A stretch of DNA of 32,000 nucleotides from Xylella taiwanensis (GTDB taxonomy: Bacteria > Pseudomonadota > Gammaproteobacteria > Xanthomonadales > Xanthomonadaceae): positions 2,100,001 to 2,132,000 of the forward strand of contig NZ_CP053627.1 of the NCBI RefSeq assembly GCF_013177435.1, in the 5' to 3' direction. The translations under genes were made by a program, and so were the position numbers. Below, piece by piece: positions 16,928-27,976 of the stretch (position 1 is its first letter; the number at the start of each line of letters is the position of its first letter). The notes below the pieces were generated by a model. It worked only from the letters and a program-made list of their open reading frames with translations, did no database searches and was not told the DNA's origin.

Positions 16928-17389
16928 CCCTACCCCGCACATCCTGCATAGCAGCGCAAAGAACAGCAGCATCAGGACGTGTCTCGCCATCAACGTCAGC
17001 TCTGCCCCTCTCGGATGTCTGCTTCCCCGCATCCATCCGTGTTCGACACCGCATCCCAACGGACTGTCGCTCCGCTGCCCAACTCCAAAGCACCGCACCA
17101 AAGCATGATGTGACTGAAAATACCTGCGCATGCCCGGCCATCCACCCGCATAAAACACGTGATACAGCCATTAAGCGGCACATAGGACAACGTCACGAAA
17201 GGCCAAGGCTTCACCTCATTCCAGTGCTCCCGCGATCTGGACAACAACACGGTTCGCTCCTGGTGCACCCGCTACGATGCAAAACACACTCACCCACGCG
17301 ACATTGGCAGGCTGGCCAATACCCGGACAGCAACACATCCACCAGATAAAAGACGGGCACCGTGACCGCAGCGCGAGAACACATTCCCG

Positions 17390-18160
17390 CTAAAAAACAG
17401 CAGCGCACTGCGTCAGCGACCTGAAGTGATCCAACGCATGATCGACCTGTGGCAACAGCATCTAGCTATCTCCGCTTCTGGGCGTACCCTGCGCGGGCAG
17501 TGTACATCCTACGTCACACATGGCCAGCACTGCGCCAGGCATCCATAGCCAGCAATAGAAAGTCTGACACCTACCAGCGGGCCACTACTGAGAGTGGTAC
17601 TTCATGACGCACCACTGCCTCAAGGCACGCAAAAAGCGCACCTGTTTGCCAACCATCGGCGCGCTGGCAGCAGCCAACATCATGCGATTTAAATGCTGCA
17701 ACGCGTCACTTGGCGGCTGACTTCACCTATATCCACAGCAAACCTGACTGACTGTCTTTCACCACCGTATTTACTTGTACTCACACATCCCCAAAGCGTT
17801 ACACAACGCTGCCACGCCGGCCCGTCGCACGCGGGACACCGTCTTAGCAATGCGCATTGCCCTGCATCAGCCCCAATCCAGCCTGATCATGCATACCGAC
17901 CACAGCACTCAGAACGCCGCTCTAGGCGATCGCCATACACTGGACCACCCCTGATCACACGTATGTCCCCCCAACCCACTGCCATTGGAACAGCCCCTCA
18001 TGAGACGGTGACGGCGGAGTGAAAAACGGGACAGAATGTGACAGCAATGCACTACTCTCCAGATGAAAGCATCACCAACATGCTCCACTCGATCGTCGGC
18101 TGCTCCTCACATCGGCTCCATGCCTCGCTAAGCGATCGCTGCGAGAAGACCCGCTGCTAA
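17390..18160 (+). pseudogene. Heavily decayed IS3-family transposase (OrfB/DDE integrase core) relic
   Basis: Collinear motif remnants appear across shifted frames. These are ..NAATRHLAADFTYI (17716-17733 = ADFTYI), then D*LSFTTVF (W->TGA), LIMHTDHSTQ (compare LIhHSDrGsQY), MSPQPTAIGTAPHETVTAE*KT (compare SMSrkGNcwDNApmEsFFgsLKtE) and HRLHASLSD (compare RrHSsLgy). There are multiple stops and frameshifts, and I saw no inverted repeats. Confidence 0.5.
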
Positions 18161-18296
18161 TACATCTCCCATCTTGGAAGTCATCAAAACGCAACCGCAA
18201 CAGCACCACCACTCCGGCCCAACGAAAAGAACAGGCTGCTCGGCTATCCGCTCTACATTGCTTTTCACGTCATACCACGCAGCCTAACATCACACC

Positions 18297-18740: not shown

Positions 18741-19440
18741 TTGGCAATAAACCCAACACCCGCAGCACGCTTGGAGGAGCGATTCAAAGAGGATCCAGCA
18801 TCCGAAAGCCACATCACTCTATGGATACCCCCCGTTCGACATGCCATGTGCATGAGCGTTCTGGACGCGACACAAACATTCGATCCGAAGACGGCCACGA
18901 CGCTCTGCATCTGCTCACTGATCGCAAGCCGGCTCGCTCACGGACAGACACACATGGAGGGGATCGATTGTCTACGTACACCCACCACGGTCACGCTGGA
19001 TGGTTTAGGGATCCAAGCTGCCTTGTAACGCAAGGTTCTATTCCGAAATCGCAAGCAAGATACGCACGCTAGGCAACGCTTCCTTGGCAGGTCATCGTAA
19101 AACTTCACATCATTCTCTCAGGTCTGGAAGAGACCAGCCGCCTTGCGCAACCGTTGCGCTTCATTCCGAACCCCTGTTACCGTCACCACGTCATCAATCC
19201 ATCATATGTGCAACAACGCCGAACAGATCGCTACATGATCAGTGCATAGTGGCCAGTATCTGTTTTTAAATCACATGGCTCATGACTGACCGAATCATTC
19301 ATTGCAGAACATGTGGTTGTGATTCACAGGTGCTTACTCCATGTACATCCAGCAGGCTCATTTCATGATGGTGAAGAGGATTCCGATGTCTGCGGTGACG
19401 CAGGCAATACATTCTTGATTGGAAAACAAGCCGCAAACCG
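18741..19440 (+). pseudogene. nth: Possible endonuclease III (nth) relic
   Basis: It lies immediately downstream of the RnfB-like gene, where nth sits in the E. coli rsx-nth operon. I see weak, collinear by-eye matches to Nth. PASESHITLWIPPVRHAMCMSVLDATQTFDPKTATTL aligns with PHPTTELNFSSPFELLIAVLLSAQATDVSVNKATAKL. VLFRNRKQDTHARQRFL aligns with GLYNSKAENIIKTCRIL. QVWKRPAA...TPVTVTTSSIHHMCNNAEQIA aligns with GVGRKTAN..PTIAVDTHIFRVCNRTQFA. HVVVIHR aligns with HWLILHG. Identity is low, stops and frameshifts are present, and one spacing is about 18 aa off. Confidence 0.4.
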
Positions 19441-20422: not shown

Positions 20423-20806
20423 CTAGCGCTGCAAACGATCAATTGAAACCACGGTATCCATGGCTTGTTCTTCCTTGCGCAGGATCACCCCGTCAGCCGT
20501 GTCACGCCGTTGCAGCGACAGCTCAACTACATCAGCCTTCTTGGTCGTCAATTGACTAAAAGCAAGTCCAAGGAGGCGCTCCACAGCACGCGCGGCTAGT
20601 CCCAACACGGCAGGTAAAACATCAGCGCTGACAAGGCCCTGATCGACTAACAATTCCATCGTGCGCTTCAATAGCCGTGGCTTCTCCAGCATACGGTCGT
20701 GGTCGTTGGGTTCTTGGCGGCTTCCCCATTTGGCCGAGCGCAATTTAATCAGGCGCGAATAGTCATTGTCATCCATCATGCCGAACGCTTGAAGTTGCAT
20801 CTTCAT
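20423..20806 (-). CDS. Hypothetical protein (127 aa), possibly itself a remnant
   Basis: Uninterrupted ORF (MKMQLQAFGMMDDNDYSRLIKLRSAKWG...). It overlaps the 3' end of the methyltransferase-like relic by 38 nt in another frame. I recognise no family. Confidence 0.35.
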   Translation of the reverse strand: MKMQLQAFGMMDDNDYSRLIKLRSAKWGSRQEPNDHDRMLEKPRLLKRTMELLVDQGLVSADVLPAVLGLAARAVERLLGLAFSQLTTKKADVVELSLQRRDTADGVILRKEEQAMDTVVSIDRLQR

Positions 20807-21503
20807 GGCTGTTACCGAAACACCTCAGCTCTTCTTTCCTCGAAAAGAACACGCCTTGAAGTGAGATTGGCGATGCGACTGGAGCACTGAAACCGCGCGT
20901 AGGTCGCAAAAATGCACCAGCGAAGTGCTGTGCTTGCTGCTCCGTCAACATGTGAGTTGCTGCCTCGCCAGATACTTCTATGTATCGGTGCAGCACTAGA
21001 TGAGCAAGCGCGTCGCCATGTGCCGTAGCGCTTCCGTACAGTACACGCCGCTACGGCACATGGATCCGCAGCGGTGGCTAAGAGAGTTTGGTCTCCGCAA
21101 TACGTTGCACGCATGGATGGCTTTCAAAACCATACGCCGCCACCCCACCACTTTCAGCTTCGATGCGTGTGGCACCAGAACCTACGAAAAGATCAAGCAC
21201 TGTGCAGCCCTTGCCGCTGTATTCACTCATGACGGTCTCGACCCATTCTGAAGAGAAATCTACTGAGTAACGCAACTAGCGATAAACTGAGCACTGTATG
21301 TTGTCGGTAAAAGTGCCCAACCGGACAATGTGGAAAAGCTTGGTCTGGTGGGGAATGGATGAAACATCGAGTAGCAAAGGAAGCCCCGAGTGGGTGCGCA
21401 CAATGTAGGTAGTAGCGTTGCAAGCACCACAGCACCCACGACTTGCCACCACATGGCATGTGGGCAACGCACCAGGACACTCCAGCAACCAAGCGGCCTG
21501 CAC
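20769..21503 (-). pseudogene. SAM-dependent (DNA) methyltransferase-like gene inactivated by three in-frame TAG codons
   Basis: One continuous frame of 245 codons is interrupted only by TAG at 21276-21278, 21078-21080 and 21051-21053, with no frameshift. It contains a motif-I-like segment YSVDFSSEWVETVMSEYSGKGCTVLDLFVGSGATRIEAESGGVAAYGFE (compare hPaxFPxxL....VLDPFxGSGTT..A...G....G.E). Confidence 0.5.
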
Positions 21504-21552
21504 ACGCGGTCGGGTTGTGCGCTAGCAGGGCAGCGTACCGCAGCCAAGAATG

Positions 21553-21576
21553 AAAAAACCCCGCATCGCTGCGAGG
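21553..21576 (-). terminator. Intrinsic terminator, probably the ancestral tRNA-Asn terminator
   Basis: The minus-strand RNA reads CCUCGCA-gcga-UGCGGGG, a 7-bp stem with one G.U pair and a GNRA loop (21559-21576). It is followed by U6 (A6 on + at 21553-21558). It lies directly downstream of the displaced tRNA-Asn 3' fragment. Confidence 0.65.
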
Positions 21577-21599
21577 CCTGCTTTTAAGCTGTTTTACTC

Positions 21600-21645
21600 T
21601 GGCACCCGAAGTTGGACTGGAGCCAATACTCCCTGATTAACAGTC
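21600..21645 (-). repeat. Displaced, degenerate copy of the 3' half of tRNA-Asn (island attL-like end)
   Basis: tggcAcccgaagttggactGgaGccaaTACTccctgattaacagtc aligns with 27900-27946 of the intact tRNA. About 6 mismatches plus one 1-nt indel over 46-47 nt, same orientation. Confidence 0.8.
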
Positions 21646-21785
21646 GCCGCATTCAAAGCACATGAGGCGCCTGAAGTTAAGCCGTTTTTCTCCGTTAGCC
21701 TCGTCTAATACAAAACGAATGAGTCAGGCACAACACATTGATTTTCAATCTACCAGTCCGACCATATTAGACAGCCAATCGACGA

Positions 21786-21831
21786 CTGAAGTGGTTTGCA
21801 GAATTCGTAATCTTCCATGAGATACCTGGAA
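21786..21831 (+). repeat. 46-nt segment paralogous to 24395-24440 (fragment of a decayed ORF)
   Basis: ctgaagtggtttgcagaattcgtaatcttccatgagatacctggaa aligns with ctgaaacggtttgcagaattcgtgatctcccattagatacctggaa at 41/46 identity. It translates as EVVCRIRNLP*DTWN versus ETVCRIRDLPLDTWK. Weaker similarity continues about 35 nt upstream. Confidence 0.8.
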
Positions 21832-21906
21832 CGGCGGAAATTCGGGCTGATTCCACCGATCCGTCGTCTAACGCAGCATTGATGGAAATATTGTGTAATA
21901 CATTAG

Positions 21907-22191
21907 ATGATGCCGCTCACCTTCCGGATTGATCAGGCGCTGCAAGCCGAGTTTTCTATGACTGCGAAGGCGCCCATGACCGTACCGGCGCATAACTCCT
22001 GTGCGCATTCATCCGGGACTAGGTGAAACAACAGCAGGAAAGCACCGGAATATGATGCTTGGCTGTGCACTAAGGTCGAGCGGTCACGATCCTCCGCCAA
22101 CGCCGGTAACCTGGTGCCCACCGCCGCAGTTGATGCCAAATTCGCAGCTCGCCGAGCTGCGACACGTCGCCGGATTGAAGCGCTGCAGTAA
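21907..22191 (+). pseudogene. Ribbon-helix-helix antitoxin gene (ParE partner) interrupted by an in-frame stop
   Basis: ATG at 21907 gives MMPLTFRIDQALQAEFSMTAKA.., an RHH beta-strand. TGA at 22024-22026 is in the same frame. That frame then continues APEYDAWLCTKVERS....RRRIEALQ* and ends TAATG overlapping the parE start (22189-22191). No ATG/GTG/TTG follows the TGA before the CTG at 22063. The middle section reads better in another frame (LLCAFIRD*VKQQQE). Confidence 0.65.
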
Positions 22192-22472
22192 TGGAATTGT
22201 TTTGGACACTAGAGGCAATACAAGACCGCGACGACATTTACGACTGTATCGAGACCGACAACCCGACCACCACGCTAGCCTTCGATGAATTGTTAGAGGA
22301 AAAAGCGACGTTGTTGGTCAGGTACCCAGCTCTCAGACAGATTGGCAGAGTTCCAGATACACGTGAGTTCGTTGTACATCGGAATTACATCTTTATTTAT
22401 GGAGTAGTTGACGACTTGGTGCGCGTGCTGAACCTGGTACACATAGCTCGTCAGTGGCCGTCGATGAGTTGA
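22191..22472 (+). CDS. parE: RelE/ParE-family type II toxin
   Basis: 93 aa, uninterrupted. The pattern W..EA..D.D.IYDYI...NP..A......L......L...P..G R.....TREFVV.RNYI.IY......V.VL.LVH.AR.WP matches ParE. Its start overlaps the stop of the upstream antitoxin frame. Confidence 0.8.
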   Translation: MELFWTLEAIQDRDDIYDCIETDNPTTTLAFDELLEEKATLLVRYPALRQIGRVPDTREFVVHRNYIFIYGVVDDLVRVLNLVHIARQWPSMS

Positions 22473-22505
22473 GTAAGTAGAACAGATTAATCTTCCAAAG
22501 CGTAA

Positions 22506-22520
22506 GGGGCCAAAGGCCCC
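22506..22520. terminator. GC hairpin between convergent parE and lipase genes
   Basis: GGGGCC-aaa-GGCCCC is a perfect 6-bp stem. It lies 34 nt after the parE stop and 21 nt after the lipase stop. The T-tract is weak on both strands. Confidence 0.45.
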
Positions 22521-22540
22521 CTACACCCTCACTCAGAATA

Positions 22541-23791
22541 CTAACGTTGCTTATCAAGCAATTGGTGACGAACCGCAATGATGCAACTCTCCAGACTGGC
22601 CAAGTGCGCAACCAGACCATCGTTAGCATCTTTGTTTCTAGGCTTTCCTGCGTCAACGTCCAACACAGAGACCTGTTTACTACCACGTCTCTGGAAAGAG
22701 ATCATCGCAGCGACGGCATTCTGCAATGGAATAAGGGAATCATTGCTAGAACCGCACAGCAGGGTCGGAGCCTGTGGCGCCCAACGCAACAAATTGTTAC
22801 GTACTAGATCCAAACGAAATGGATTTCCCGGATTATAGAAATCTCTATAAAAACCAGGCTGGAAATACGTCTTGATCTGGTCAGGCTTAGGAAAGTCATC
22901 AAGTGTCAGCTTCTTATCACCAGGAAACCACACTTCAACCTCATCTGCCCAAGGCTCCTGAAAAACGTCTATGGGGGAGAAATAGATATTGTGGTAGGTA
23001 CGGTTCATGCCGATAATCAGAGCGGTGGCCAACGGGATAAGGTCAAGAGCGTCACTACGGCCATACCAACTATCAAGGATCGTTTGGCTAAGCGCATACG
23101 GCCCAGAAATCGGCGCACTCGCAACAAGCGAAAACTCATTTGACAGGTGTGCTTCAATCTCACGCTGGGTAGCCAGTGCACTATGGCCACCTTGCGAAAA
23201 GCCAGACGCCATCACTTTGTCCGACAGTGGCGTCTTTAAACCCCGCAGTACAGTACGAGCGGCACGCATCGCATCAATCGTAGCACTGGCCTCTGAAGAC
23301 GCCTGTAGATAAGCATGGAAGGGGTAGTCAGAGTTACCTAATCCAAGATAATCAACGCCAACAACCACATAGCCCTGGCTAGCTAAACGTGTGACCAATG
23401 GAGTATTGCCCTTAGCGTTAAAGATAGCCTTAGCCTGTCCAGCATGACGCAGCGCGCTGATCATCGGACCCCAAGAGAGCATAGGATAGGGAGCCGGGCA
23501 ATACGAACCATCTGGGATGAGCAGTACCCCCGACGCCGTCGTCGGTTCACCGGACACACCAACCGTTGCATAATTCAACTCAACAACATGAACGTCGCAT
23601 TTGGGTTGTTCGGACGCAGGCTCCTTGGTGAGAAAGGCAGCAATCTCATCTCTTTTATAGCTGGCAAGGAGATTGCTCTCAATCACCGTACCACGTTGAG
23701 GCCAAGCTGCTGCGACCACAGGAAAAACAACGCTAGTCATAATAAGCAGGCGAAGACCTGGAAGTATCGGTTTTTTTCTGAAATAAAGCAT
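22541..23791 (-). CDS. Secreted lipase/esterase (alpha/beta hydrolase, LIP / LipA-like)
   Basis: I place the start at the ATG at 23791 (MLYFRKKPILPGLRLLIMTSVVFPVVAAAW, a signal peptide). The ORF opens at 23863. The nucleophile elbow is MASGFSQGGHSAL. The size of about 416 aa fits Xanthomonad LipA-type esterases (my recollection). Confidence 0.7.
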   Translation of the reverse strand: MLYFRKKPILPGLRLLIMTSVVFPVVAAAWPQRGTVIESNLLASYKRDEIAAFLTKEPASEQPKCDVHVVELNYATVGVSGEPTTASGVLLIPDGSYCPAPYPMLSWGPMISALRHAGQAKAIFNAKGNTPLVTRLASQGYVVVGVDYLGLGNSDYPFHAYLQASSEASATIDAMRAARTVLRGLKTPLSDKVMASGFSQGGHSALATQREIEAHLSNEFSLVASAPISGPYALSQTILDSWYGRSDALDLIPLATALIIGMNRTYHNIYFSPIDVFQEPWADEVEVWFPGDKKLTLDDFPKPDQIKTYFQPGFYRDFYNPGNPFRLDLVRNNLLRWAPQAPTLLCGSSNDSLIPLQNAVAAMISFQRRGSKQVSVLDVDAGKPRNKDANDGLVAHLASLESCIIAVRHQLLDKQR

Positions 23792-24045
23792 GAGATTAGA
23801 CTCACTTGAACGAGTTATAATATTTATATGATCGCCAGCTAAATACCAAGACAATTGTCTCAAAAAATATTTTTTATATAAGAAAGAATTTATGCGATCA
23901 ATTCATATAATAAATTCTAAGCCATTATAAAGTATTACCTATAGAGAGATTTAACGTTATTTCTAAAAAATATTAATATTTTTTAATAATCTATCTATAT
24001 ATCAAATGAAATTATATAATCCACGCACTCAAATTAAGCCAGCAA
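23792..24045. promoter_or_regulatory. Extremely AT-rich upstream region of the lipase gene, with A6/T6 palindromes
   Basis: A 14-bp perfect palindrome AAAAAATATTTTTT lies at 23862-23875. A 20-bp perfect palindrome AAAAAATATTAATATTTTTT lies at 23965-23984. The surrounding ~200 bp is almost devoid of G/C, in sharp contrast to the rest of the window. Confidence 0.45.
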
Positions 24046-24070
24046 TATAGCCTCACGTTCTGAGGCTATA
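24046..24070. other. Perfect 10-bp stem hairpin at the edge of the AT-rich block
   Basis: TATAGCCTCA-cgttc-TGAGGCTATA. No clear U-tract follows on either strand, so the function is unassigned. Confidence 0.4.
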
Positions 24071-24156
24071 GACATCACTGCCGACATGACTCGTAGAAGA
24101 AAACAGTTGTGTCCACCGTAGCTCGGACCATTTACTCAAGACGTCGTTGAGGATAA

Positions 24157-24531
24157 CGTTTTGGTCAGCATCGAAGGCAAGGACAAAGCGCACATGCCAT
24201 CACTGAAGATGGTGACGGCAACACGTGGAGTTTTGAAGCCACTGGGGAATTGGCTAAGGACTTGGCTCACCACTTGTTCGGAAAGCCTGTTCGGCTAAAG
24301 GGCAGTGTCCGTTTGCCTAGAGATGCAGCAGGGTAATGGCAATACAGCAGTCTCAAAGCAGTTGAATTTCGACCGCTAAACAACGATACCTTGGCTGAAA
24401 CGGTTTGCAGAATTCGTGATCTCCCATTAGATACCTGGAAACAAGATATTGACCCCGTTGCAATGCTTAAATCGCTTCGCGATGAAGATTGCCTCCCACA
24501 TCGTTGCTCAGGTCAAAAACAGAATGATTAA
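24157..24531 (+). pseudogene. Decayed ORF of unknown family (paralogous fragment at 21786-21831)
   Basis: The frame reads ..AITEDGDGNTWSFEATGELAKDLAHHLFGKPVRLKGSVRLPRDAAG*WQYSSLKAVEFRPLNNDTLAETVCRIRDLPLDTWKQDIDPVAMLKSLRDED..*. An internal TAA lies at 24334-24336. Upstream text reads in another frame (NVLVSIEGKDKAH). There is no start codon. Confidence 0.45.
24395..24440 (+). repeat. 46-nt segment paralogous to 21786-21831
   Basis: See the feature at 21786-21831 (41/46 identical). Confidence 0.8.
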
Positions 24532-24929
24532 GGCTGCTTGGCTGGCTGTGGTGGCGGCTGCAATGCTTGAACCGGAACCTGAATGATGATTGGGGCAGAC
24601 TGAGTTGGCAACGCTTGAGAAGTGACCTTCACACTACTGGCAACGAAGCCGCCAACGCCAAGAATGCCTGCGAAAAGGGCTAATACCGTCGCGAGCATCC
24701 ATGTTCGATTTTCTTTTTGAGCCTTCTCGAAATCGGTGTGCAACTCCCCCACTGACTTGTCTAAATCGGCACGCAACTCCCCAACCGACTTGTTTAAATC
24801 AGCACGCAACTCCCCCACCGACTTGTTTAAATCAGCGCGCAAGCCTTCAAAATCGGCCTTGGTGGCAAGTGTGGGGATGATGGTTTCAAGTTGGACTATA
24901 CGTGCTTCCATACCGTCATCATGTGGCAA
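24528..24929 (-). CDS. Small coiled-coil, single-pass membrane protein with an internal 11-aa x3 repeat
   Basis: 133 aa. The N-terminal heptad-like region is MEARIVQLETIIPTLATKADFEGL, followed by (RADLNKSVGEL)x3. One TM helix follows (WMLATVLALFAGILGVGGFVASSV) and then a Pro/Gln-rich tail. It is on the same strand as the BrnA-like gene and 55 nt downstream of it. Confidence 0.6.
   Translation of the reverse strand: MPHDDGMEARIVQLETIIPTLATKADFEGLRADLNKSVGELRADLNKSVGELRADLDKSVGELHTDFEKAQKENRTWMLATVLALFAGILGVGGFVASSVKVTSQALPTQSAPIIIQVPVQALQPPPQPAKQP
24741..24839 (-). repeat. 3 x 33-bp perfect-phase tandem repeat inside the CDS
   Basis: The units are 24741-24773, 24774-24806 and 24807-24839 (caactcccccactgacttgtctaaatcggcacg and variants). 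They differ at a few positions, and a degenerate fourth unit follows. Each unit encodes 11 aa in frame. Confidence 0.9.
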
Positions 24930-24984
24930 ATCGCTGGCAACGTCCAGCGGGGTGAGGCAGTAAGGTGCAAGGAAACGGCGCTGT

Positions 24985-25275
24985 TCATTTTATAGGTGGA
25001 TCTCCGCTTGTTCCGCGTAGCGAAGCCGCATCGCTTTCGAGCAGCATCCGCACATAGCGCGTGTATGGCACACCTTTCGTTTTGGCCTTAGCTTTCAACG
25101 CTTCCAGTAGTTGGGTGGGTAATCGCATATTCAATACGGCTGTTTTGGGTTCGATCTCAAAGTGCATCGGCTTAAACCCGGAAAGATCATAGAGCAACAG
25201 GTCGGCCTTAGCGACGAATTCATCAGCCGCTACGTCGCTACGCAGCGATGGCATGGGCTTAGATTTGACCTTCAT
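24985..25275 (-). CDS. CopG/ribbon-helix-helix antitoxin (BrnA / CopG_antitoxin-like)
   Basis: 96 aa. ..PSLRSDVAADEFVAKADLLLYDLSGFKPMHFE..KTAVLNMRLPTQLLEALKAKAKTKGVPYTRYVRMLLE matches the pattern of antitoxins paired with DUF497/BrnT toxins. Its ATG overlaps the TGA of the upstream toxin remnant (ATGA at 25272-25275). Confidence 0.7.
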   Translation of the reverse strand: MKVKSKPMPSLRSDVAADEFVAKADLLLYDLSGFKPMHFEIEPKTAVLNMRLPTQLLEALKAKAKTKGVPYTRYVRMLLESDAASLRGTSGDPPIK

Positions 25276-25451
25276 ACATAATGATTAATCTCTTTCTGGT
25301 GCATATAACGGGGGCTGATAGGACGTCGCTTGATACGGCCTTCAGTCTCTTTAAGCATGAATACAAGGCATACGTAATGTCCTGCTGGGGGTTGTGAAAG
25401 GGAACCATCTGAAATTTCGGGACGCCTGTTACTGTTAAGACAGGCTAGAAG
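25272..25451 (-). pseudogene. N-terminally truncated BrnT (DUF497)-like toxin remnant
   Basis: The open frame covers only ~59 codons (..RPEISDGSLSQPPAGHYVCLVFMLKETEGRIKRRPISPRYMHQKEINHYV*). The C-terminus matches the DUF497 signature iRIISARkAtkkE...Y. An upstream in-frame TAA lies at 25452-25454. The only ATG would give 28 aa. The remnant abuts and overlaps the stop of the M20 peptidase gene. Confidence 0.6.
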
Positions 25452-26755
25452 TTATCGCTGAGATAACGGCTAATAAAAATAGCTGCTCTTTTGGTGACTA
25501 TGGGGAGAGCAGCTATCTCTAAAGTTTCATTTTTACTGTGCGCCCCAGTTCCCCACGGACCTAAACCATCAATGCTGGCAGAAACATCTTGTGCAATATA
25601 AGAAATATCCGCTCCTCCACGTTCAGCCGCTGGCGCTGCCTGCAATGGTTCTCCACCCAATGCCGTACTGATAGTGCTGAATTGGACTAAAAGTTGCTTG
25701 TTGGCATCAGTCTCCGGCATAACCGGGATGATATCTTTGAATATCAATTGACTGGAGGTGAGCGGTAATGGAGTCACCGTAATGTCACGCATCTTTTGTT
25801 CTGCGAGGCTTTTCTGTGCATTGGATAAAAAGCGCAAATCGCCATGCACTAATGTTTGTGCTGCAATAATGGTTTTCTGCCCGCTAGCATGACCGATACC
25901 TTGCTGTACATCTTCACTCACGGTCTGTCCACCAAGAATAATCCCTGGATTAAGGGTTAAACCGGACGTATCCGAAAGAGTGGTGCGAAACATATTCAGC
26001 ACCCGTGCAATTTCATAAATAGCACCAAAACCAGCACCAGACTCAAATATTGTGGATGAATGTCGTGATGTACCACTGCTGGAAAGATACCATTCACTTA
26101 ATCCTCTTCTATTGGTCACCAGCTGGTTGGTGGTCAGAGAGAACTCAAACCCCAGTGCAATATCACTGCCCTGAGCGGCTTCACGTAGTGTTTTACGCGA
26201 TATTTCGGTTGGCTTTGCCGCCTGCTCCTCATCGCCGGTAAGTACGACCGTGATATTGGCATTCTTTAGTTTATCTACCTGATCCAGCGCCTTGAGAGCA
26301 TATAAGAGCGTGACTATGCCACCTTTATCATCAATGACACCCGGCCCTGTTGCTGATTTTTTATCCGAGGAAAGCACGAACGACTGAAAAGGACTGTCAG
26401 CAGGAAAAACCGTATCTAGATGACCAATCAACAAGATCCGCTTCCCCACTCCGTGATGGGTAGCCACTAAACTGCCGGCATGTTTCATTGATGGAGGGAG
26501 GTCGACCCATTGTGTTTTGAAGCCCATACTTTCAAACTGTGGGCGAATCAGTTCACCAACTTTTTTGACACCCTCGTTGTTTGCTGTGCCGCTATTGATA
26601 TTGACCAGACGCTCTAATAACTCGAGTTGATTTTTTTTATTTTCATCAATGTGATTTATTAAAACGGTTTCATCTGGATTTAACGTTGCATTGGCAATAG
26701 GGATATCGTTGACACCTAATAAAACCAATATCAGAAAAAATATTCTTTCTTTCAT
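25445..26755 (-). CDS. Secreted/periplasmic M20-family metallopeptidase (carboxypeptidase G2-like)
   Basis: I place the start at the ATG at 26755 (GAGG 7 nt upstream; signal peptide MKERIFFLILVLLGVNDIPIANA). The ORF opens at 26785. The M20 motifs LLIGHLDTVFP, VIDDKGG and LTGDEEQ are present. GC content is visibly lower than in neighbouring core genes. Confidence 0.8.
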   Translation of the reverse strand: MKERIFFLILVLLGVNDIPIANATLNPDETVLINHIDENKKNQLELLERLVNINSGTANNEGVKKVGELIRPQFESMGFKTQWVDLPPSMKHAGSLVATHHGVGKRILLIGHLDTVFPADSPFQSFVLSSDKKSATGPGVIDDKGGIVTLLYALKALDQVDKLKNANITVVLTGDEEQAAKPTEISRKTLREAAQGSDIALGFEFSLTTNQLVTNRRGLSEWYLSSSGTSRHSSTIFESGAGFGAIYEIARVLNMFRTTLSDTSGLTLNPGIILGGQTVSEDVQQGIGHASGQKTIIAAQTLVHGDLRFLSNAQKSLAEQKMRDITVTPLPLTSSQLIFKDIIPVMPETDANKQLLVQFSTISTALGGEPLQAAPAAERGGADISYIAQDVSASIDGLGPWGTGAHSKNETLEIAALPIVTKRAAIFISRYLSDNF

Positions 26756-26937
26756 GTTTATCCTCATATAGCCGTTAACCTCCACGTTACAGGTACAGAC
26801 GGCCTAGGGCCTGCCCAACCCACATCCTGATCGCATTGAGCCCACGGTCGACCAACTTCTGCGGCCAGTATCGACCTTAGCATCATACGATCACCCAAAG
26901 TAGGCGGACCTGGAGCATCTCGATGATGTCCCCGATG

Positions 26938-27389
26938 CTATACCATGACCGAACTTCTTTTCACTGCGCGCTGAGCACGTGCCAACAGAGCGCCAAACGC
27001 CGCGCCGAGCAGATGCGCAACCCACGCCACGCTGCCAAAGTCGAGCACGCGTGCAGCAAACACCACCTGCAGAGCAATTAACTGGCGAACGCAGTGCAGT
27101 CATGCAGGAACAGCGCCAGCCAGCCCTCGTCGAGCGCAAATACGACGGCGCTGGCACCGATCACAGGCCAGTCGATCAGCACCACCGCCGCACCGTTGGT
27201 CAACTCGCCGGTACTATGGACGCAGGTCATGCTGATGGCACGTGCGATACACGGGCCGAACATCACCAGGCCGGTAAGATTGCCGGATAAATGTGCAATG
27301 CTGGTGTGGAGCAAGACCGTCATCATCGTGACGCAATCCCTAGTGCAATGGTCACCTTGAAATTTCCAGAAGTCGTGGTATTCGGCCAC
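26938..27389 (-). pseudogene. Rhomboid-family intramembrane serine protease, frameshifted and 5'-truncated
   Basis: Frame A reads ..LLHTSIAHLSGNLTGLVMFGP...VIGASAVVFAL.. (the H..HL..N motif and the GxSG region) and ends at 27078. Frame B reads ..FGSVAWVAHLLGAAFGALLARAQ..* (the catalytic-His AHxxG region) and ends with TAG at 26938-26940. At least one frameshift lies near 27078-27100. The N-terminal part is missing or degenerate. Confidence 0.6.
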
Positions 27390-27539
27390 ATATCCAGGAC
27401 AGGCGTGGCCAGATTTGGACTCACCAGCACCGCGACGGCGACAAGCAAGCGTAAATCCCTCGTCGTCGCCAGCGATTGAATCTGCCAGCCAGCGGACACA
27501 TTAGCGGTGACTGTTGACGTGATATTGATGTTCAGCATG

Positions 27540-27813
27540 GCTGCTGCAAGCATGTCATCACTCATGGCCACCAGCGCACCAAGAGACGGAACCGCCACTT
27601 TGGTAACCGTCGTTATTTGTCCACGATGCCAACGTACCCGTATCCGCAACAGACGCACTCGTAAGGCAGGGCTATCAGATGTGCGCCTGCATGACATGAG
27701 AGCCCAAGACGGGAAGGAAACGGGAAACGGTCGAAGAGGCATCGCAAGTATTAGGTCATTCCGATACACAAGTAATGCAGCGGCGCTACCGACGGAGGAT
27801 GACAACCCGGTGA
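27540..27813 (+). pseudogene. int: Tyrosine recombinase (phage/P4-type integrase) C-terminal stump
   Basis: ..RRTRKAGLSDVRLHDMRA (HxLR box) is followed, after a +1 frameshift near 27700, by KTGRKRETVEEASQVLGHSDTQVMQRRYRRRMTTR* (LGH...T..Y box with the catalytic Tyr). Only ~90 codons remain. It ends 86 nt from the tRNA-Asn 3' end. Confidence 0.7.
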
Positions 27814-27845
27814 TTATTAGACAACTCAGCGTTTATTAGACACGC

Positions 27846-27883
27846 GGAAAAACAACAAGGGCCTTCATCTCTGAAAACCCTTG
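27846..27883 (-). terminator. Possible terminator of tRNA-Asn (island-borne)
   Basis: The minus-strand RNA reads CAAGGG-(16-nt loop)-CCCUUG followed by UUGUUUUU. The loop is long, so the call is only moderately convincing. Confidence 0.4.
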
Positions 27884-27899
27884 CATTTAAAGCAATTCA

Positions 27900-27946
27900 T
27901 GGCGCCCGAAGTTGGACTCGAACCAACGACCCCCTGATTAACAGTC
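27900..27946 (-). repeat. tRNA-Asn 3' half = island attR-like end
   Basis: Direct repeat partner of 21600-21645. Confidence 0.8.
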
Positions 27947-27976
27947 AAGTGCTCTAACCGGCTGAGCTATTCGGGC
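27900..27976 (-). tRNA. tRNA-Asn (anticodon GUU)
   Basis: The reverse complement is GCCCGAAUAGCUCAGCCGGUUAGAGCACUUGACUGUUAAUCAGGGGGUCGUUGGUUCGAGUCCAACUUCGGGCGCCA. It folds by hand into a full cloverleaf: 7-bp acceptor stem, GCUC/GAGC D stem, CUGUUAA anticodon loop, GUUGG/CCAAC T stem and UUCGAGU T loop. CCA is encoded. Length 77 nt. Confidence 0.92.

Follow-up and report, generated by a model that had tools for sequence, protein, structure and literature searches.

We find that the toxin-antitoxin (TA) locus of the window, the 32,000-nucleotide stretch of Xylella taiwanensis DNA analyzed here, is probably what erosion has left of a ParD(YacA)/ParE operon from a mobile element, and that its toxin is probably neither made nor active. 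The first-pass annotation had presented the locus as a paradox, with an intact ParE toxin gene, expected to be lethal, next to an antitoxin gene broken by a single in-frame stop codon. This framing was overstated: The antitoxin died long ago, the toxin appears to be drifting, and such a state has been documented as a less common result of TA decay (PMC13617665). The lethality paradox is apparent, not real, because the toxin gene drifts and its expression signals have been lost. The toxin ORF, the antitoxin frame, the TAATG overlap, the TGA at 22024-22026, the CTG at 22063 in the antitoxin frame, and the frame containing a TAG that the annotation described were all recovered in the sequence. 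The features discussed below are collected in Table 1.

Table 1. Features of the ParDE relic and of the surrounding island (positions in the window)
Feature	Positions	Strand	Basis
Chromosomal flank that ancestrally adjoined tRNA-Asn, moved away by island insertion	21506-21598	.	75.7% identity to X. fastidiosa L012/L014/L015 flank
Degenerate att-like direct repeat of the last 47 nt (3′) of tRNA-Asn; left island boundary	21600-21645	-	Repeat identity
Fossil genomic island, ~6.25 kb, in tRNA-Asn	21646-27899	.	Repeat and tRNA bounds; absent in X. fastidiosa
Degraded operator/promoter block of the TA operon	21871-21903	+	Relatives share TGTGCTAC..GYAC..GTAACACAT
Truncated 5′ end, no Shine-Dalgarno sequence (SD)	21904-21912	+	Ancestral SD and start codon missing
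Pseudogene of a parD/yacA-type antitoxin, 95 aa in its ancestral form (predicted RHH at the N terminus, predicted ParE-binding region at the C terminus)	21907-22191	+	Family matches of the repaired translation
+2 insertion (GC duplication), first frameshift	~21969-21974	+	AAGGCGCCCAT versus AAG--GCCCAY in all relatives
Nonsense TAA in ancestral frame, Gln to stop	21993-21995	+	Relatives CAA/CAG; Gln 99% conserved
Nonsense TAG in ancestral frame, Tyr to stop	22020-22022	+	Relatives TAC/TAT/TTC; Tyr 96% conserved
TGA in shifted frame between the two frameshifts	22024-22026	+	Secondary
+1 insertion in A run, second frameshift, original frame regained	22039-22041	+	GGAAAGC versus GG-AAGC or equivalent in all relatives
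Undamaged antitoxin C-terminal half (APEYDAWL...IEALQ), PaaA2-like predicted ParE-binding module	22042-22188	+	Conservation; PaaA2 alignment
ParE-type toxin ORF, 93 aa	22191-22472	+	PF05016 match; fold match
tRNA-Asn (GTT), integration site, right island boundary	27900-27976	-	ARAGORN

An open toxin frame of the ParE type

The toxin ORF runs from an ATG to a C-terminal end of ...HIARQWPSMS with neither stop nor frameshift in its 282 nt, and its start overlaps the antitoxin stop as TAATG at 22189-22193. It matches the Pfam model PF05016 (ParE_toxin) with 41.5 bits (cut-off 23) and the NCBIfam model RelE_StbE with 35 bits; on the same Pfam model, eight close relatives reach 57-70 bits, which is 16-28 bits above the window toxin. 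The top match in a search of PDB sequences is ParE2 of Escherichia coli O157 (E = 2e-7), and, when modeled with AF2 (pLDDT 86.4), the toxin superposes on that protein with a TM score of 0.89-0.90 (rmsd 1.5 Å, 33% identity). TM scores against other ParE toxins are 0.73-0.86, mostly ~0.8 (6XRW_A, 0.80), compared with 0.49-0.66 against YoeB, YafQ, and RelE. By profile the toxin is a member of the ParE branch of the RelE/ParE superfamily, and its modeled fold is of the ParE type and not of the RelE/YoeB/YafQ type. The PF05016 match and the TM score of 0.89 to ParE2 bear out the earlier assignment to the ParE family. The hallmark of ParE toxins is the poisoning of gyrase or topoisomerase, with induction of the SOS response and neutralization by the cognate antitoxin.

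Lesions of the antitoxin gene

We aligned the DNA of the locus with nine related loci, including those of Trinickia, Thauera, Achromobacter, two Betaproteobacteria MAGs, pXcB, a Mycetohabitans megaplasmid, and pRWC72a (yacA/yacB). In the intact relatives, the antitoxin has 95 aa and the toxin 94 aa, and the stop codon of the first gene overlaps the start codon of the second. Seven of the nine loci are intact; the remaining two (L004 and L006) have a damaged toxin with an intact antitoxin, the reverse of what is seen in the window.

The alignment reveals at least five lesions in the window's antitoxin gene, among them two frameshifts, a pair of nonsense codons, and a 5′ truncation, which preclude an uninterrupted antitoxin ORF of ~95 aa. 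The TGA at 22024, which the first-pass annotation had reported as the in-frame stop, is secondary because it lies inside the out-of-frame stretch bounded by both frameshifts; it is a by-product of the first of them. The second frame reads ...HDRTGA-stop-LLCAFIRD-stop-VKQQQE, its TAG being the nonsense codon at 22020-22022. Five or more independent disabling lesions have left the antitoxin gene dead.

The C-terminal half has no in-frame ATG, GTG, or TTG before 22114. The first-pass annotation had stated that no such codon follows the TGA to restart the conserved C-terminal half; a GTG at 22114 does follow and opens a 25-aa ORF, but it is too far downstream for such a restart. We reject the proposal that a 39-aa N-terminal fragment suffices as antitoxin: It contains only 22 authentic residues and is devoid of the predicted C-terminal toxin-binding half (positions 45-90).

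Once repaired, the antitoxin translation shares 78-80% identity with proteins of 95 aa that bear the names "CopG family ribbon-helix-helix" (RHH) or "YacA." A Pfam search of the window's antitoxin pieces gave no match, and the antitoxins of the relatives themselves score 18.6-20.4 with RHH_9, below the threshold of 23.4. The antitoxin family profile, however, matches Pseudomonas aeruginosa ParD (6XRW_B) over positions 2-80 (E = 3.9e-5), and family positions 45-90 align with PaaA2 (E about 0.011). The profile match to ParD and the PaaA2 alignment therefore indicate a ParD(RHH)/ParE module in which the C-terminal half of the antitoxin probably corresponds to PaaA2. The RHH antitoxin that had been recognized upstream of the toxin is probably of the ParD/YacA type, as both its 95-aa relatives and the match to 6XRW_B indicate.

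Control region and expected expression

The window retains 19 of the 33 positions of the operator block that lies upstream of the antitoxin (relatives, 23-30) and 10 of its 15 invariant positions, and the left half-site is lost. The imperfect half-sites of this operator are visible only in the alignment; an automatic search for inverted repeats (seed 6) returned nothing in any locus. The block ends 3 nt before an ATG-ATG in the window and 11-14 nt before the start codon in relatives, the 5′ region of the window being ~14-17 nt shorter. An SD of the GGAG/GAGG/AAGG type is present in five of seven relatives and absent in the window. A consensus scan for sigma-70 promoters found none in the window, a result that does not discriminate because none is found in the intact pXcB relative either. 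Scanning 20.5-23.5 kb with Rfam gave matches at chance level only.

No SD precedes the toxin start in the window or in the relatives, and the start/stop overlap is common to all, so that toxin translation is probably coupled to completion of the antitoxin. In the window every reading frame of the antitoxin ends at least 135 nt upstream of the toxin. Since the SD, the start, and the operator of the operon are damaged as well, little or no toxin is expected; on these sequence features, it would be made poorly or not at all. With a dead antitoxin, a damaged operator block, and no SD, the locus lacks the constitution of a functional type II TA operon.

Drift of the toxin gene

The description of the toxin gene as free of lesions is correct for stops and frameshifts but not for missense changes: The toxin has 15 substitutions at positions at least 80% conserved in 118 relatives (family mean 3.4, SD 2.4, maximum 11) and is the most deviant of the 119 family members. 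In a leave-one-out HMM test of the 119 sequences, it scores 149 bits compared with 179 ± 5.6 (z = -5.3). The near-invariant residues of the subfamily are not retained: A28T (100% conserved), G49R (98%), L60F (98%), L68F (98%), and D71G (97%) are changed, and A85I is also among the substitutions at such positions. Further conserved residues are affected by L31F (95%), V82L (93%), H45Y (91%), D44R (88%), and R50Q (86%). The substitutions are scattered over helix 2, the loop that follows it, and strands 2-4, at core and loop positions alike.

As a measure of drift, we used change at nucleotide columns that are unanimous in five relatives. The toxin is changed at 23 of 147 such columns (15.6%) and the dead N-terminal half of the antitoxin at 14 of 73 (19.2%). 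The same measure applied to functional relatives gives 0.7-13% across segments and 0.7-8.7% for the toxin. Changes from GC to AT outnumber the opposite direction, both overall (29 vs. 9) and in the toxin (18 vs. 4). The toxin has a GC content of 48.4% (relatives, 53.5-59.9%), which is 10.8 points under that of its antitoxin; the corresponding gap in six relatives is 1.8-3.6 points. We took the divergence of the att-like copy at the left island boundary as an independent neutral clock, and its value of 6/47 (13%; 95% CI 5-26%) agrees with the 15.6% of the toxin.

By these measures the toxin sequence behaves as unconstrained, AT-shifted DNA, and the numbers suggest that the toxin may have been drifting for at least as long as the antitoxin. 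Comparison of dN/dS between the window and six relatives was uninformative because synonymous sites are saturated (pS 0.6-0.8, with many values undefined), and the toxin/antitoxin dN ratio falls inside the range found among the relatives.

A fossil island in tRNA-Asn

The ParDE relic lies within a genomic island, 260 bp from its edge; the island has a tRNA at one end and a direct repeat at the other and is absent from the sister species. The att-like copy is identical to window positions 27900-27946 at 41 of 47 sites and to the X. fastidiosa tRNA at 42 of 48; the orthologous tRNA of the X. fastidiosa locus L012 lies at 18932-19008. The displaced flank includes the conserved hairpin CCCCGCATCGCTGCGAGGCCT. 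Three X. fastidiosa loci (L012, L014, and L015) share the core genes and tRNA-Asn with the window but show no similarity to 21646-27899. Synteny extends to a TonB receptor, metG, and an Fe-S protein on one flank and to a pilin and pilY1 on the opposite flank. The window's MetG shares 95% identity with the X. fastidiosa cluster representative and ~81% with the MetG proteins of other Xanthomonadaceae.

According to Pfam, the island carries the ParDE relic, an alpha/beta hydrolase, a coiled-coil ORF, BrnA with a BrnT remnant, an M20 peptidase, and a rhomboid-like fragment. BrnA is intact (88.5 bits) and the trace of BrnT faint, which makes this pair a second TA relic. The BrnT remnant, a methylase stub, and the lack of a detectable integrase make up a context of decay. 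The cargo has a GC content of 45-50% (hydrolase 50%, M20 peptidase 45%), compared with 58% for metG. Stop-to-stop segments of 26.8-27.9 kb contain no match to Phage_integrase (Pfam), and we class the island as fossil and not mobile because no integrase was detected beside the tRNA. Searches of plasmid and phage DNA with the island flanks and a 930-bp stretch gave nothing useful.

Relation to known ParD/ParE systems

The nearest systems at the DNA level are the yacA/yacB-type modules of X. citri pXcB (73% over 540 nt), IncP-1 pRWC72a, and Burkholderiales chromosomes. These "plasmid stabilisation" modules of conjugative plasmids share with the window the gene sizes, the stop/start overlap, and the operator block. 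In sequence and fold, the toxin is nearest to ParE2 of the paaR2-paaA2-parE2 operon of the E. coli O157:H7 prophage CP-933P (5CW7, 5CZF). PaaA2 is a natural stand-alone antitoxin of ParE2 without a DNA-binding domain, regulation being left to the separate PaaR2 (PMC8630535). The window differs from PaaA2-ParE2 in that its antitoxin descends from an RHH fusion of 95 aa, has since been broken, and retains a PaaA2-like half with no start codon, and in that its toxin is highly deviant. P. aeruginosa ParDE (6XRW) and the pairs 3KXE, 5CEG, 8C24, and 7R5A have the same order, with an RHH antitoxin upstream of a toxin of ParE fold. Pairs of the 6XRW type are intact and functional, whereas the window has a dead antitoxin and a degraded control region.

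Proposed decay of the operon

We propose that the TA operon arrived with the island when, in the X. taiwanensis lineage, this inserted into tRNA-Asn and that the toxin would have lost activity, expression, or both first. Loss of the toxin first is the usual order of TA decay (PMC13617665). The antitoxin would then have been free to break. Toxin translation would need ribosomes that finish the antitoxin frame, a coupling that would now be broken, and the open toxin frame would be a survivable accident of neutral decay.

How lucky such an accident is can be estimated. In simulations, 25-40 random substitutions leave the toxin ORF free of stops in 47-32% of trials, and the chance that it escapes both stops and frameshifts is ~0.001-0.19 (central values 0.02-0.08) under an assumed 0.05-0.2 indels per substitution. 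The absence of frameshifts in the toxin is thus mildly lucky. Five lesions lie within the first ~135 nt of the operon and none in the 282 nt of the toxin, an all-antitoxin distribution with P = 0.03, although small P values are inflated here by ascertainment, the locus having been picked for the contrast with an intact toxin. A silently inactive toxin was among the solutions that the first-pass annotation had offered, and it is the one favored by the outlier tests and by the drift, alongside a loss of expression that had not been listed.

The outcome is rare but has already been described. In Photorhabdus, eight of 379 eroded TA copies (2%) combine an intact toxin with a defective antitoxin, and pseudogenization of the toxin only or of both genes dominates, with 185 and 186 copies, respectively (Belot et al. 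2026; PMC13617665). The explanations put forward by those authors are toxins killed by missense changes, polar effects, and other antitoxins (PMC13617665). The Photorhabdus copies resemble the window in their state, in belonging to a RelE/ParE-family system, in lying in a region of high gene turnover, and in the explanations that have been offered for them. That study counted such cases without dissecting them, whereas the drift of the toxin and the lost expression signals are described here for one case in another genus.

Alternatives to neutral decay

An active toxin could be neutralized in trans by a paralogous ParD, YacA, or PaaA2-like antitoxin encoded elsewhere in the genome. The open ORF and the confident ParE-fold model fit this explanation, compensation by similar antitoxins has been proposed for such cases (PMC13617665), and the number of TA systems varies among Xylella genomes (PMC8176220). 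We nevertheless consider it unlikely. There is no close paralogue among the best 120 antitoxin relatives, the sole other antitoxin in the window is the unrelated BrnA, and the neutral-like drift and AT shift of the toxin argue against ongoing selection. Non-cognate ParD/ParE pairs are, moreover, usually insulated from one another.

The second alternative arises from the distribution of the damage within the antitoxin gene. Every disabling lesion falls in the RHH half and the C-terminal half is free of them; if the lesions are independent, the probability that all five fall in the N-terminal half is 7e-4 operon-wide. At columns at least 90% conserved, the C-terminal half deviates at none of 21 and the N-terminal half at 10 of 29 (Fisher p = 0.003), and at the nucleotide level the C-terminal half is changed at 4 of 69 unanimous columns compared with the 14 of 73 given above (p = 0.02; segment pN agrees), an asymmetry based on small counts and on a partly post-hoc split. 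Local hypermutation of the N-terminal half is excluded because raw divergence is even along the operon (nucleotide divergence to pXcB is 0.25 there and 0.33 in the toxin). The C-terminal half alone has no match in the PDB.

A uniform neutral model does not predict the spared C-terminal half. Its survival could be due to chance on small counts, or to a shorter neutral period for the antitoxin combined with an unlucky clustering of lesions; residual selection on the PaaA2-like fragment is improbable. Such selection would presuppose a reduced module without RHH domain, in which the C-terminal half is made at a low level, by read-through of TGA-22024 from the ATG at 21907 or by non-standard initiation, and the toxin comes only from ribosomes that have read this frame to its end, so that it never exceeds its antitoxin. 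Apart from the sparing itself, this module would draw on the single stop of frame 0 from 21907, which results from the two frameshifts summing to +3, and on the alignment with PaaA2, which neutralizes ParE2, the best structural match of the toxin. That it works is very doubtful: The C-terminal half has no start codon of its own in a usable position, 21907 has no SD, no sign of efficient TGA read-through is seen, the neutral drift of the toxin would not be allowed in a functional pair, and the asymmetry is subject to the limits just stated. We attach equally little probability to the corresponding evolutionary reading, that the locus captures a natural transition from a two-domain RHH-ParD to a stand-alone PaaA2-like antitoxin, with the DNA-binding half lost, the ParE-binding half and the toxin under selection, and expression kept low and strictly coupled through read-through of the frame-0 TGA.

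A third possibility is that selection for a new, non-addiction role has held the toxin ORF open, the protein being an exapted or attenuated ParE. It would account for 282 nt without stop or frameshift despite ~16% change at constrained sites, for which the neutral chance was estimated above, and it has a parallel of sorts in blueberry-infecting X. fastidiosa, in which an orphan RelE/ParE gene is linked, not cleanly, to phenotypes (PMC13048404). That gene is likewise a solitary toxin ORF of the RelE/ParE superfamily in Xylella with no cognate antitoxin adjoining. It is, however, of the RelE type, has an intact ParD/ParE pair beside it and no described antitoxin remnant, and is not a positional homologue, the syntenic X. 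fastidiosa loci being without trace of the window's TA genes. The locus has neither an SD nor a recognizable promoter, its substitutions are AT-biased and fall on core and loop alike, it was chosen for its open ORF, and ~2% of eroded TA copies look the same in another genus; we therefore hold exaptation to be improbable as well.

Finally, a sequencing or assembly error hiding an intact antitoxin, which had been raised for position 22024, is effectively refuted, since there are five separate lesions of differing kinds plus many missense changes, two more complete assemblies, independent of the first (CP087686.1 and CP011800.1; loci L010 and L011), do not differ from the window across the TA region, and the exact toxin protein is present on 32 contigs.

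Implications

The survival of the C-terminal half bears on whether antitoxins of the PaaA2 type originated when an ancestral DNA-binding domain decayed (PMC8630535), for which the evidence from this locus is too thin to make a claim. As a probable remnant of neutral decay, the locus cautions that a toxin cannot be presumed to work because its frame is open and matches its family well, and that a single visible stop in the partner gene can conceal a long history of decay. It provides a worked example of the rare erosion class in which an intact toxin frame accompanies a broken antitoxin.

A fossil genomic island in tRNA-Asn

The ParDE relic (a dead antitoxin gene with an open ParE-type toxin ORF) lies in a fossil genomic island for which tRNA-Asn was the integration site. 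The repeat at the opposite boundary matches the 3′ end of this tRNA gene at 41/47 positions and adjoins the displaced ancestral flank, and in X. fastidiosa the same site carries no island. The cargo genes are low in GC (45-50%); no integrase is detectable within the island.

Features of the island and of neighboring variable DNA
Feature	Position	Strand	Evidence or note
Genomic island in tRNA-Asn, ~6.25 kb	21646-27899		Boundaries: repeat 21600-21645, tRNA-Asn 27900-27976
BrnA/CopG_antitoxin ORF and BrnT remnant	24988-25284 and 25275-25451	-	PF12441 match; weak BrnT match
Predicted coiled-coil protein ORF	24531-24989	-	Hydrophobic C-terminal segment
33-bp tandem repeat within this ORF	24740-24842		3.1 copies, 91% matches
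Rhomboid-domain match, stop-to-stop segment	27081-27500	-	Marginal: 23.4 bits, cut-off 22.6
68-aa ORF antisense to dead antitoxin gene	21933-22139	-	Public gene calls, CP087686.1
N6/N4 DNA methylase stub, 65 aa, C-terminal part	21081-21275	-	27.9 bits
IrrE/Peptidase_M78-like fragment, weak	20772-21050	-	E = 0.02
metG to Fe-S protein gene, ~930 bp	17298-18229		No X. fastidiosa counterpart

The tandem repeat encodes a reiterated 11-residue motif, LRADLNKSVGE. The Rhomboid-like segment falls in the kilobase from the M20 peptidase gene to tRNA-Asn, which is otherwise poor in ORFs. Public gene calls for CP087686.1, a further complete assembly identical across the ParDE region, omit the antitoxin gene and list the antisense ORF. 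The pseudogene DNA here is GC-rich, and this ORF is very probably not a real gene.

Immediately beyond the island edge, the variable region holds the methylase stub and the IrrE/Peptidase_M78-like fragment, two additional decayed defence or mobile genes. The flanks of the metG/Fe-S protein gene interval are contiguous in X. fastidiosa, and in the interval we found no internal repeats, phage or plasmid matches, or long ORF.

Direction of toxin-antitoxin decay

Damaged toxins beside unbroken antitoxins occur at two of the nine relative loci: in an Achromobacter MAG (L004, 3001-3255), the toxin lacks a start codon and its QWP motif is interrupted (TGG to TGA), and in a beta-proteobacterium MAG (L006, 3001-3283), it carries a 2-nt deletion. 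Within the island itself there is a second toxin-antitoxin relic, consisting of an unbroken BrnA/CopG_antitoxin ORF (88.5 bits to PF12441) with only a faint remnant of the C-terminal part of BrnT upstream (E = 0.06). This relic, its antitoxin kept and its toxin lost, shows the usual direction of decay, whereas the ParDE relic shows the reverse.
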